Positions 10,433-12,647 of a stretch of 51,073 nt of DNA are shown one piece after another. The stretch's first letter is position 1; each line of letters begins with the position of its first letter. The notes below the pieces were generated by a model that worked only from the letters and a program-made list of their open reading frames with translations, had not been told where the DNA came from and ran no database searches. The DNA is taken from positions 1 to 51,073 of the IMG/VR virus record IMGVR_UViG_3300046786_000189. The stretch is one strand, 5' to 3'. Source of the stretch: a virus. Its lineage: Duplodnaviria > Caudoviricetes. The translations under genes were made by a program, and so were the position numbers.

Positions 10433-10465
10433 TTTTATACGTAGTTTTAGACGATAAGTAGTTGT

Positions 10466-11041
10466 ATGCCAAGTCCACAGAAAGCAAAAGGTTCAGGTTT
10501 CGAACGAGAAATAGCTAAGTTTCTTAGCGCAAAGTACGATGAGAGTTTCATTCGTGCTCCTGGATCCGGTGCATATGTGGGTGGCAAGAATCAAGTAAGA
10601 AAAGAAATGTTACATGAGGGACAGATTCGTTCTTTTAAGGGCGACATTGTTCCTGGACATTCTTTCAGCAAAATGAATGCAGAGTGCAAGTTTTACGCAG
10701 ACTTCCCGTTTCATCTATTACTTACAGGTGAATGCAAACAACTTGATTCGTGGTTAGACCAACTACTAGATGTTGAAGACGAGGGCGACATGAACATATT
10801 GTTTATGAAGTTCAATCGTATCGGCAAATTCGTTGTCGTACAACCAAAACTATCATGGGTTACTGATAATTTCATTTTCTATGCTAGTAAGAAGTACGGT
10901 GATTGGATCATCATAGAGTTTGATAACTTTTTCGAACATAACGCAGGTTTAGTAAAATTATATTCAGGCACCGAGCCAAAACCAAGCAATTCAACTGACA
11001 CCACGTCAAAATTTTCAATCAACACAATAGATATAACCTAA
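10466..11041 (+). CDS. PD-(D/E)XK nuclease, Hjc-like Holliday junction resolvase (putative)
   Basis: 'KAKGSGFERE...R.PGSGA...GDI...ECKFY' matches the E...GD...ExK pattern of Hjc-like phage resolvases. An ATAAGTA motif lies 5 nt upstream of the ATG. Confidence 0.7.
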   Translation: MPSPQKAKGSGFEREIAKFLSAKYDESFIRAPGSGAYVGGKNQVRKEMLHEGQIRSFKGDIVPGHSFSKMNAECKFYADFPFHLLLTGECKQLDSWLDQLLDVEDEGDMNILFMKFNRIGKFVVVQPKLSWVTDNFIFYASKKYGDWIIIEFDNFFEHNAGLVKLYSGTEPKPSNSTDTTSKFSINTIDIT

Positions 11042-11050
11042 CAATTAGTT

Positions 11051-11417
11051 GACTGTGTATGACAGTCCTCCTTGAGTCTGTACAGATAGTGCTGTGCCGA
11101 TAGAACTGGAGTCAGCATGAATAGTGATATTCATGGTATACCGAGAAGGCAATCGTCAAAGCGAACCTTCAATGAGTACATATCTAATTCTGTCTTGCGG
11201 ATATGTAACATGCGTTGCCGAAGAATCAAACCAACATAATGTTTGATAGCTTCACTACAGTCCCGAATACTTTACAGGGCAACCGGTAGCAGATAATAGC
11301 AATAATAGCTGATTGTCTGGGGAATAGACGGCAAAGGATGACGGGCATGGCAAGTTTCCATTGGTAGTGCTGAATAGCACTACCATGGCTTCAAAGCGGC
11401 AAGTATATTCCCCTCAA
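11051..11417 (+). ncRNA. Candidate large structured non-coding RNA (unassigned family)
   Basis: No ORF of 60 aa or more, and GC-richer than the flanks. About ten mutually compatible nested helices were found by hand, including CATGAATA-GTGA-TATTCATG (GNRA loop), TACATATC/GATATGTA, GTTGCC/GGCAAC, TACCG/CGGTA, CAGATAAT/ATTGTCTG (G-U), GGGAATA/TATTCCC, TGGTAGTGCT/AGCACTACCA and TTGAG/CTCAA. Confidence 0.6.
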
Positions 11418-11454
11418 ACATAATTAAGTAAAACAGTTAATAAAAATAAATCAG

Positions 11455-11518
11455 TCTAACCGAACGTAGTAGTGAGCGAAGCGAACTACAAGTGAAGGTA
11501 GATGACCGAAGGTCATCT
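11455..11518 (+). other. GAA-triloop hairpin cluster after an AT-rich tract (possible origin/ssDNA signal or terminator)
   Basis: GCGAAGC at 11476-11482 inside a GTAGT/ACTAC stem; perfect AGATGACC-GAA-GGTCATCT at 11500-11518; A/T-rich 11418-11452. Confidence 0.45.
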
Positions 11519-11564
11519 TTAAAGAGAAACGTAATTTGTGATAAATGACATACTACGGGTATTA

Positions 11565-11792
11565 TTAGAAGAATGCTAATCCTGTTTTCTTAGTAGTTTC
11601 TAAGTTATCATCAATCAATTCGTTAGCCATCTTCAATTCATCCGGGCTCATGTTTAACACATCTACATAGGATATACCACCACGCATATACCAAGAAATG
11701 CGTTGGGCGTTCTTCTTAACAGCCCTAACTTCTCTTTCCATTTGTTCTATCAGCTTCTCAATACCTGGGGCATCAAGATATAGAAGCCTCAT
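11565..11792 (-). CDS. Baseplate hub assembly protein, gp51-like (putative)
   Basis: Small ORF coupled (ATGA) downstream of the gp26-like gene; 'WYMRGGISY..VLNMS..E' pattern fits the gp26-gp51 synteny. Confidence 0.55.
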   Translation of the reverse strand: MRLLYLDAPGIEKLIEQMEREVRAVKKNAQRISWYMRGGISYVDVLNMSPDELKMANELIDDNLETTKKTGLAFF

Positions 11793-12616
11793 TCGAAAAA
11801 ATCAGAAATATTTAAGGTGAATGTTTGTTCGTATTCGTGACTACAATTTACACATTTCATATTCAATGGTTTCATCTGTGTAGTTTCACGAAGTTTTAAT
11901 CCAGTGTCTTTGATAAGTTCAAATACACTCTTTTCACTGTTTACAATGAATTCAAGGATAAACTCTTTTTCAGTAACTCTGGTATCGGGTGTTTGAATAT
12001 ACTCAATGGTGTTTGCCATAACATCCATAGTAGAGTTTGTAATCAATCGTAGCAATTCAGTTGATTTGGATGTACGTTCATCTTCATTTTCAATCAATTG
12101 TAGGTTCTGTAGAGCCTTTTGTATTTCAAATTGCTTGACTGAACTGTTAGTAACTTCTCTGTAATTCATTGGCTTGAATTTGATTTTTAAGTCATTGATT
12201 GTCAACAGTTGGTCATAGTCACCTGCTACAAAATTACCTAGAATGCGGCTTAGATTCACTCCGTATTTTGATTCTTCATTGCAACTTGGACAGGTAGACT
12301 CAATTTCCATTTCAGTACCATTAGTAGCAATACGAATAGCAACCAAAATAGCATCCATATCAAGATTATTGATTTTCCATGGATCTTTGATACTGGGAAC
12401 ACAGCTTTTGATAATATCACATACAGCCATACCATTATACAATGCGTCTGGGGTTTTAGCAGTGATTTCATCTAACGCTGTCATGGGATAAACTGGAAGT
12501 TCACCTGATTCCGGAATCGTCAACACAGTATTGTCGTAACCTACTCCTCTGCTAGGTAACTTCAAATAGATGCTTGGTCTGCGAAAATATTGTTTTAATG
12601 GGTTGTGATCGTGCAT
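11789..12616 (-). CDS. Baseplate hub assembly chaperone, gp26-like
   Basis: 'NPLKQYFRRP.IY.KLPS.G...PMTALDE...D.DAILVAIRIATNG...CPSC...CVNC' with two CxxC pairs. Start re-called at 12616 (CAGGAG SD). Confidence 0.75.
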   Translation of the reverse strand: MHDHNPLKQYFRRPSIYLKLPSRGVGYDNTVLTIPESGELPVYPMTALDEITAKTPDALYNGMAVCDIIKSCVPSIKDPWKINNLDMDAILVAIRIATNGTEMEIESTCPSCNEESKYGVNLSRILGNFVAGDYDQLLTINDLKIKFKPMNYREVTNSSVKQFEIQKALQNLQLIENEDERTSKSTELLRLITNSTMDVMANTIEYIQTPDTRVTEKEFILEFIVNSEKSVFELIKDTGLKLRETTQMKPLNMKCVNCSHEYEQTFTLNISDFFE

Positions 12617-12647
12617 GGTAACTCCTGAAACCGTTGATTTTTTACAA

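Follow-up and report, generated by a model that had tools for sequence, protein, structure and literature searches.

Several described systems resemble the locus examined here. A section of the ColE1 literature describes the persistent hybrid that RNA II forms and its role in priming (PMC5043065), and part of another report describes ssiA/n'-pas, exposed downstream of the ColE1 primer (PMC3167613). For phage T4, portions of one account describe origins at which R-loops lie on an AT-rich unwinding element, with middle promoters at oriF and oriG (PMC3016281). In an excerpt of the bridge RNA analysis, covariation by identity with an element's own top strand is read as pairing to the bottom DNA strand (PMC11208160). 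Our literature search found the initiation of jumbo T4-like phage replication unmapped and found no structured primer RNA of the ColE1 kind for a phage. Here, we describe a pseudoknotted RNA of such phages in which one short word occurs twice, and we give about an even chance to the proposal that it is a cis-acting, R-loop-forming primer at a jumbo phage replication origin, similar to ColE1 RNA II.

RESULTS

A noncoding gap beside a resolvase gene

By its gene content, the window (the whole stretch of 51,073 nucleotides that was analyzed) is a piece of a T4-like jumbo phage genome. It carries, in order, genes for a late sigma factor, gp47, gp46, and a resolvase; gp51-like and gp26-like genes on the opposite strand; and then portal and capsid genes. 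The resolvase gene (positions 10466 to 11041, plus strand) encodes a PD-(D/E)XK nuclease, a RusA-like Holliday junction resolvase (PF24608, E = 8.7e-23; phrog_244), the closest cultured relatives of which are those of SCTP-2, PA5oct, and Phosso at 38 to 48% identity. An ATAAGTA word of late-promoter type (10454 to 10460, plus strand) lies 5' of the resolvase gene and is a candidate source of the transcript; in 31 of 42 loci with full flanks, the word lies within the 40 nt before the resolvase. The gp51-like and gp26-like baseplate-hub genes occupy 11565 to 12619 on the minus strand (PF12322, phrog_150), and a slippery T TTT TTC (11795 to 11801, minus strand) lies where the gp26-like ORF ends and overlaps the gp51-like ORF. 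Their 3' end is the usual neighbor of the RNA, at times with intervening genes, in five large genomes and also in loci L384, L395, and L397. The original prediction had placed a structured RNA in the gap between resolvase and gp51-like genes, and our ORF check found the gap (11042 to 11564) indeed devoid of coding frames of 60 aa or more. Of 117 distinct upstream regions, 4 (L053, L220, L375, and L397) carry iteron-like tandem repeats of 10 to 13 bp immediately 5' of the RNA, compared to 0 to 1 in shuffles; such repeats were not seen in the window.

A conserved fold with two pseudoknots

Conservation places the RNA gene at 11051 to 11403 on the plus strand, the conserved element ending near 11403. 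The plus strand of 11051 to 11417, the span originally predicted, has a folding energy of −113.9 kcal/mol (z = −3.5), which none of 100 shuffles equaled, while the minus strand gave a z-score of −1.27; the comparison with shuffles thus came out in favor of the prediction. The local helices proposed at the outset lie where they had been drawn. Covariation in 39 or 121 sequences was seen for 11051 to 11067, 11116 to 11135, ACCG/CGGT, GAAGG/CCTTC, TACATATC/GATATGTA, GTTGCC/GGCAAC, GAAG/CTTC plus its inner stem, and 11291 to 11318. For the stem at 11362 to 11385, pairing held up in 99% of cells, but its sequence is almost invariant across the 39 RNAs. The two closing stems did not survive: TTGAG/CTCAA was paired in 50% of cells and GGGAATA/TATTCCC in 70%, neither better than shuffles, of which 229/500 matched the two stems on percent paired and 107/500 on covariation. 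Positions 11068 to 11071 pair with 11108 to 11111 rather than as these stems would have it. Nor is the fold a single nested structure, as had been claimed, because 11320 to 11331 forms two pseudoknots, with 11261 to 11264 and with 11190 to 11195.

The revised structure comprises 78 pairs, with 95.7% of cells paired and two-sided change at 53 pairs among 39 aligned sequences. It was reached by 0/500 shuffles, and sliding the partners lowered pairing to 32 to 42%. Mutual information (MI) over 121 distinct RNAs recovered the same helices, and the two pseudoknots rank among the strongest covariation signals. The 5' domain (11051 to 11135) contains P1 (11051 to 11067), P2 (CTCC at 11068 to 11071 with GGAG at 11108 to 11111), which has a conserved TTGA/GA internal loop and a variable P2a, and P3 (11116 to 11135). 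The core junction (11140 to 11287) is built of ACCG/CGGT, GAAGG/CCTTC, ATG/CAT plus TACATATC/GATATGTA, GTTGCC/GGCAAC, and GAAG/CTTC, each with compensatory changes in the 39 sequences. Pseudoknot 1 (11190 to 11331) joins CTGTCT (11190 to 11195) to AGACGG (11326 to 11331), with two-sided change in 5/6 pairs, 99% pairing, and MI z-scores of up to 24. Pseudoknot 2 (11261 to 11323) joins TCCC (11261 to 11264) to GGGA (11320 to 11323), together with CT (11270 to 11271) and AG (11288 to 11289); two-sided change was found in 3/4 pairs, with 96% pairing and an MI z-score of 28. The 3' module includes a short helix, P10 (11336 to 11338 with 11390 to 11392), and a terminal hairpin, TGGTAGTGC/GCACTACCA (11362 to 11385), which is almost invariant within a subtype. 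A loop word, CACTAC (11253 to 11258), is complementary to the 5' arm of this hairpin (11364 to 11369), and the pairing compensates in several subtypes (mean run of 4.6 for own versus 4.1 for cross partners in 16 hand-picked cases), which is suggestive only of a possible folding switch.

Three candidate features were rejected. Anti-Shine-Dalgarno mimicry by CCTCCT was dropped as the segment pairs with GGAG instead, with one compensatory change. A long-range GCCG/CGGC stem was discarded by eye, its 5' partner not being conserved. A mini-ORF, MASFHW*, at 11347 behind AGGA kept its frame in 48/95 sequences and had no start in 28/123. Among five expression runs considered, none contained half of the stretch. 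Contigs of relatives, which are uninformative on transcription either way, covered the RNA twice at 80% likeness (two short contigs, depth 2 to 3) and not at all at 90%. Given the covariation, the wobble-type changes, and the GNRA loops, a novel structured plus-strand phage noncoding RNA, as predicted from sequence, is well supported.

A family carried by giant T4-like phages

The RNA was present in 54 of 56 resolvase loci; the remaining two comprised one truncated locus and one with a diverged form. A pattern for the type I 3' hairpin matched an estimated 430 stretches in IMG/VR, from which 120 were taken, and the MI alignment holds 121 distinct RNAs; L155, a chance hairpin, was excluded from type I counts. 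A motif of the diverged locus L056 led to a second subtype, type II, with about 440 stretches, 120 of which were sampled to yield 97 distinct full-length RNAs. Type II resembles type I in topology and differs in sequence. Among 80 loci with more distant resolvases, 67 matched a sequence-only pan-family model without base pairs (R1), which was built partly from the tested loci so that their rows match by construction, and 9 more matched the type I profile, giving 76/80; the pan-family alignment (A2) includes one row, L230, in the wrong orientation. In all 76, the RNA lies on the resolvase strand. The family reaches into diverged freshwater and marine subtypes, and hundreds of giant T4-like phages of lakes and seas carry it.

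No Rfam 15 family matched the subtypes tested, either at the gathering score or at E values of 0.5 to 10; the best overlap was IMES-2 (10 bits, E = 8), and ColE1, the control, gave RNAI. Known ribozyme families were likewise not matched in this search, and RNA I (RF00106), the one antisense family considered, had no match at the locus. The earlier statement that tRNA and tmRNA signatures are lacking agrees with ARAGORN, which reported none, and with the poor conservation of the mini-ORF as a tag frame. A relative, G002, encodes a permuted tmRNA with the tag ANDSQFALAA, at a site apart from this RNA, and 34 tRNA genes (L187:6402-6878; L180; L197). In cellular genomes, 9 pattern matches were obtained, none supported by a model. 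A blastn search of 50,697 phage records with four subtypes as queries found no real match in cultured phages, and the models gave no significant match in PA5oct and Phosso (Phosso, E = 2.2, minus strand). Both phages have a largely noncoding gap of 1 to 1.5 kb between the gp26-like region and the resolvase (PA5oct, L177:1980-3490; Phosso, L179:2490-3500) that contains long hairpins and GA-type motifs, and the Phosso gap abuts an RNase HI gene. None of the four noncoding RNAs in Table 1 of PMC7318152, the portion of that source considered, lies at the PA5oct/Phosso gap, with the proviso that the table's numbering may differ from that of NC_071039. Noncoding elements of about 650 nt that follow the resolvase, end in GA hairpins, and match no model were observed at L407:3010-3700 and L409:3010-3650; possibly, they are a further subtype. 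A literature search over titles and abstract openings returned no description of the RNA or of a phage primer RNA. Candidate lists of phage structured RNAs have reportedly been published and could hold fragments of the family.

The nuclease is a neighbor

Directly upstream of the RNA, type I loci with enough flank carry the resolvase in 71/72 cases, the exception (L120) having a GIY-YIG-like gene. In type II, by comparison, the nearest upstream gene is GIY-YIG-like in 49/69 loci, the resolvase in 5/69, and another gene in 15/69. The GIY-YIG-like nuclease has 142 to 147 aa (L120:588-1031), and its best match is PHROG 447, labeled NAD synthetase. By tblastn, gp46 is followed by either the resolvase or the GIY-YIG-like nuclease in five large genomes. 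The slot holds one nuclease type per genome when G002, G004, G007, and G008 are set against G006, and L267 carries both. The exchange may represent non-orthologous replacement of a junction nuclease. The complete genome G006 has the RNA and no resolvase match, and in L384, L395, L397, and their relatives the RNA sits between gp26/51 and the resolvase start, i.e., upstream of the resolvase. The RNA had been suggested to be an RNP partner of the PD-(D/E)XK nuclease; the 5/69 count in type II, G006, and the RNA lying upstream of the resolvase in diverged loci disfavor this role. The resolvase is a neighbor and not an obligate partner, and no obligate linkage of the RNA to one effector family was found.

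Genome position and replication genes

The RNA lies 3.5 to 5.6 kb from a genome-wide divergent switch in gene direction in 5/5 genomes (330 to 367 kb, three subtypes). Because the gene order is conserved, this counts as one observation, and the switch may reflect only transcription layout. GC skew at four-fold sites, computed for two genomes, follows the coding strand with no clear independent flip at the locus. In the genomes searched, the hairpin-anchored RNA occurs once per genome. A scan of 139/315 ORFs of one relative revealed a T4-type replisome: polymerase, helicase, primase, SSB, UvsX/Y, a UvsW-like helicase, and clamp loader. A 5'-3' exonuclease is encoded in 5/5 genomes, and none of the 5 genomes searched per family gave an RNase HI family gene. 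PF00078, the reverse transcriptase family, had no match in 5 large genomes (3 rated complete), a search that could miss a very distant member.

Two copies of one word change together

In the subtypes inspected, the 3' module keeps the same order: short helix, bulge with word 1, hairpin, and word 2. Word 1 (GGGC-AT-GGCAAGT, 11343 to 11355, plus strand) occupies the bulge between P10 and the terminal hairpin, and word 2 (AAGC-GGCAAGT, 11394 to 11404, plus strand) marks the place on the template strand to which word 1 is predicted to bind. The words are 6 to 9 nt long, with about 12 to 20 joint changes per subtype. In type I, 11345/11396 is the only strong covariation of identity type (MI, 121 RNAs), the letter being identical in 102 of the 103 sequences (of 121) that could be parsed; on a tree of the 5' part, each copy changed 12 to 13 times and both together about 13 times, joint changes thus equaling single ones. 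In type II, two positions show 0.97 to 0.98 identity between the words, and each underwent 16 to 21 single and about 20 to 21 joint changes, a count that keeps about 9/97 mis-anchored rows. The longest word common to both copies measured 7.3 nt in type II and 5.5 nt in type I; with shuffled partners, the values were 5.5 and 5.0 nt, respectively. Whole words were swapped in both copies, among them GTTGAA, AGTAAT, GATAAT, CAGCAT, AAGCAG, CGGTAA, ACATGAAG, AGATCAAG, ACGAAAT, ATGGTAAA, GGAAAT, CCAAG, ACAGGAA, GGACAG, and GGTAAT. That many unrelated words occur twice is as expected for self-recognition.

A complementary third partner was absent from the top-ranked column pairs (RNA of types I and II and tail of type II), and pairing to the bottom DNA strand would produce just such covariation, in the same sense and without a complement. 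The mismatches at the word edges, counted among relatives that are not phylogenetically independent and next to an AT-rich tail that biases the word 2 edges toward A, mostly fit wobble pairing of RNA word 1 with template DNA at word 2. Written as word 1/word 2, the type II 3' edge has G/A 35 and T/C 15 times versus A/G 2 times (n = 74), position 7 of type II has G/A 55 times versus A/G at most once (n = 97), and the type I 5' edge has T/C in 72/112. The type II 5' edge, with C/T in 59/74, has the wrong polarity for this interpretation, and 11 C/T cases occur at the type II 3' edge, at least some of them in mis-anchored rows.

An AT-rich tract and DNA-type hairpins follow word 2

Word 2 is followed by a tract of 78% A+T (11404 to 11458), a candidate unwinding element, and then by two hairpins that combine tandem G-A pairs with C-GAA-G triloops (11459 to 11518, plus strand). 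These hairpins are of DNA type and, on the displaced strand, could serve for single-strand initiation or as a primosome site; in type II, they can begin only about 15 to 30 nt past word 2. The hairpin core lies on the RNA strand in 86/129 type I tails and on the other strand in none. cGNAg is a triloop motif stable in DNA. A loop census of types I and II, restricted to perfect stems of at least 4 pairs, gave 141 GNRA loops (69 + 72) and 2 + 0 cGNAg loops in the RNA body, and 141 cGNAg triloops (93 + 48) and 18 GNRA loops (12 + 6) in the tail. Folding of the tail as RNA was also predicted (−21.6 kcal/mol). In 83/162 tails, the hairpins are followed by TAAATG (11541 to 11547 in the window), which is on the RNA strand and points toward the end of the gp51-like gene.

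The pattern CGAACG-N-GAGCGNAGCGA-N-GTGA, which was composed after viewing both sequences, occurs once in the window (11461 to 11495), once in ColE1 (1323 to 1350), and never in shuffles. Because RNA I maps to 645 to 749 of the ColE1 minus strand, the ColE1 copy, in a stretch that we take to be pas-BL, is on the RNA II strand, about 130 to 155 nt past the origin. An HMM of the tails did not find ColE1. Viral matches to the GA-hairpin pattern numbered 60, with 15 at this RNA, 5 in ColE1-like sequences, and 40 in other settings. These settings include contig ends of phages of 43 to 44 kb and repeats at about 1-kb spacing in a giant-virus bin (L493, L507, L526, and L544; L499 and L523 to L525). 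Since the pattern is post hoc and 40/60 matches lie elsewhere, it is a general folded motif and not a ColE1 homologue.

DISCUSSION

Three roles had been offered for this RNA: partner of the nuclease, ColE1 RNA II-like primer, and ribozyme. In our analysis, the primer appears to fit the new evidence best; what was observed in its favor is the fold, the jointly changing twin word, the AT-rich tract, and the strand-specific hairpins with DNA-type loops. Also counted in its favor are the wobble-type mismatches at the word edges, the absence of a third partner among the top-ranked column pairs, the hairpin pattern and twin G6 runs of ColE1, the R-loop origins of T4, the place of the RNA near the switch in gene direction, its single copy in the genomes searched, and the encoded T4-type replisome and 5'-3' exonuclease. 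As we picture it, the RNA would be made at the end of a gp55-gp47-gp46-nuclease operon and fold during synthesis, such that bulged word 1 is presented beside the point where word 2 exits the polymerase. Base pairing of word 1 to the template strand at word 2, over 7 to 9 bp, would block rewinding of the duplex, and the downstream transcript would stay hybridized across the AT-rich tract. The displaced, RNA-like strand could then fold its GA/GNA hairpins, leading to loading of a helicase-primase (the phage gp41/gp61 homologues or host PriA), and a trimmed RNA 3' end would prime the phage polymerase. Several findings count against such a primer: the predicted hybrid of the two words is short, with a bulge of 1 to 2 nt required in type I; the type II hairpins can begin only about 15 to 30 nt past word 2; the pattern shared with ColE1 is post hoc and occurs in other settings, and the tail HMM missed ColE1; the likely promoter is of late type versus the middle promoters of T4 oriF/oriG; no RNase HI gene was found; there is no independent skew flip; and the type II 5' edge has the wrong polarity. 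The broader claim is doubtful, though possible, that the RNA founds a self-targeting class, ornate and protein independent, which invades its own DNA through a reprogrammable word of 7 to 9 nt and opens and primes the origin of a jumbo phage clade. If so, the choice of word would be free as long as both copies agree, and R-loops could be directed to chosen sites by retargeting the RNA.

Other roles would account for part of these data. It is unlikely that the molecule acts as a free ornate RNA or RNP, be it scaffold or ribozyme, in which the twin words are two equal sites for a protein dimer, an outside RNA, or parallel same-base pairing. The elaborate pseudoknotted core and invariant unpaired bases are more than an R-loop seems to need, the words begin a few nucleotides after opposite P10 ends in a pseudo-two-fold layout, and a third strand with G and U at its edges would also explain the wobble-type mismatches; however, the top-ranked pairs include no third covarying column, the words take many unrelated sequences while neighboring proteins remain 55 to 80% identical, and the DNA-type tail stays linked on one strand. 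We regard as quite improbable a guide RNA whose word 1 brings a phage enzyme (resolvase, GIY-YIG nuclease, helicase, or terminase) to the RNA's own locus, where the enzyme would nick, recombine, or initiate packaging. Two unrelated nuclease folds swap at the slot, other genes intervene in 15/69 cases, some diverged loci have the RNA on the upstream side of the resolvase, and the lists examined contain no second guide segment covarying with the top strand, even though the donor loop of IS110 bridge RNA offers a parallel in recognizing its own element, a nuclease gene is nearest upstream in 71/72 type I and 54/69 type II loci, and the promoter-like word is of late type.

There is also a slim chance that the element is a cis-regulatory 3' untranslated region (terminator, stabilizer, or translation switch) between convergent operons, with tail hairpins that act as RNA. 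Convergent genes do flank it in the window and its tail does fold as RNA (−21.6 kcal/mol), but L384, L395, and L397 have a co-directional arrangement, a search of the RNA end yielded no terminator-like site, the mini-ORF at 11347 is not conserved (frame in 48/95, no start in 28/123), and the twin word would be left unexplained. That the twin words are template-jump signals by which a reverse transcriptase copies the hairpin repeatedly, in telomerase- or DRT-like fashion, is barely credible: word-hairpin-word with identity covariation does resemble a realignment template, but the 5 large genomes gave no PF00078 match, and a cDNA realigning at the dominant mismatch, G in word 1 with A in word 2, would face a C-A mispair.

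Whatever its function, the RNA represents a pseudoknotted family that is new and deeply conserved, counts hundreds of diverse members, and is suited to structure work. Moreover, the twin word offers a sharp genetic test, in which one copy is broken and the pair is then re-matched with a new word; function is thus directly testable, which is unusual for a large ornate RNA.

The proposed primer shares with ColE1 RNA II a structured noncoding transcript in which a run is repeated upstream and near the 3' end, the twin G6 runs of RNA II lying at 928 to 933 and 1175 to 1180, as well as a GA-rich hairpin motif, of the general pattern noted above, downstream on the RNA-sense strand. In ColE1, the G runs are reported to nucleate the persistent hybrid between G stretch and C stretch. 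The phage RNA, by contrast, is about 350 nt long with two pseudoknots and a freely varying word, whereas RNA II has 555 nt and a G run; ColE1 has no sequence match to either subtype HMM or to the pan-family model, and the phage locus, without an RNA I match or an RNase HI gene found, belongs to phages of 300 to 500 kb with their own replisome. With T4 oriF/oriG, as the sections considered describe them, the locus has in common a T4-type replisome and a transcript, here a predicted one, followed by an AT-rich element. Those R-loops, according to the same sections, need no specific sequence and no structured RNA and start from middle promoters, while at the jumbo phage locus the RNA is ornate and conserved, the words match, and the promoter word is of late type. 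Large pseudoknotted noncoding RNAs, some of them phage-borne, are also known in GOLLD, ROOL, OLE, and HEARO, as far as the excerpts on them go, but the phage RNA has no Rfam match in the subtypes tested. Finally, the IS110 bridge RNA, in the part of its analysis drawn on here, likewise contains a segment, placed in an internal loop, that shows identity covariation with the top strand of its own element; the phage RNA differs in having no recombinase or mobile element, a single word, and a target within or at the end of its own gene.
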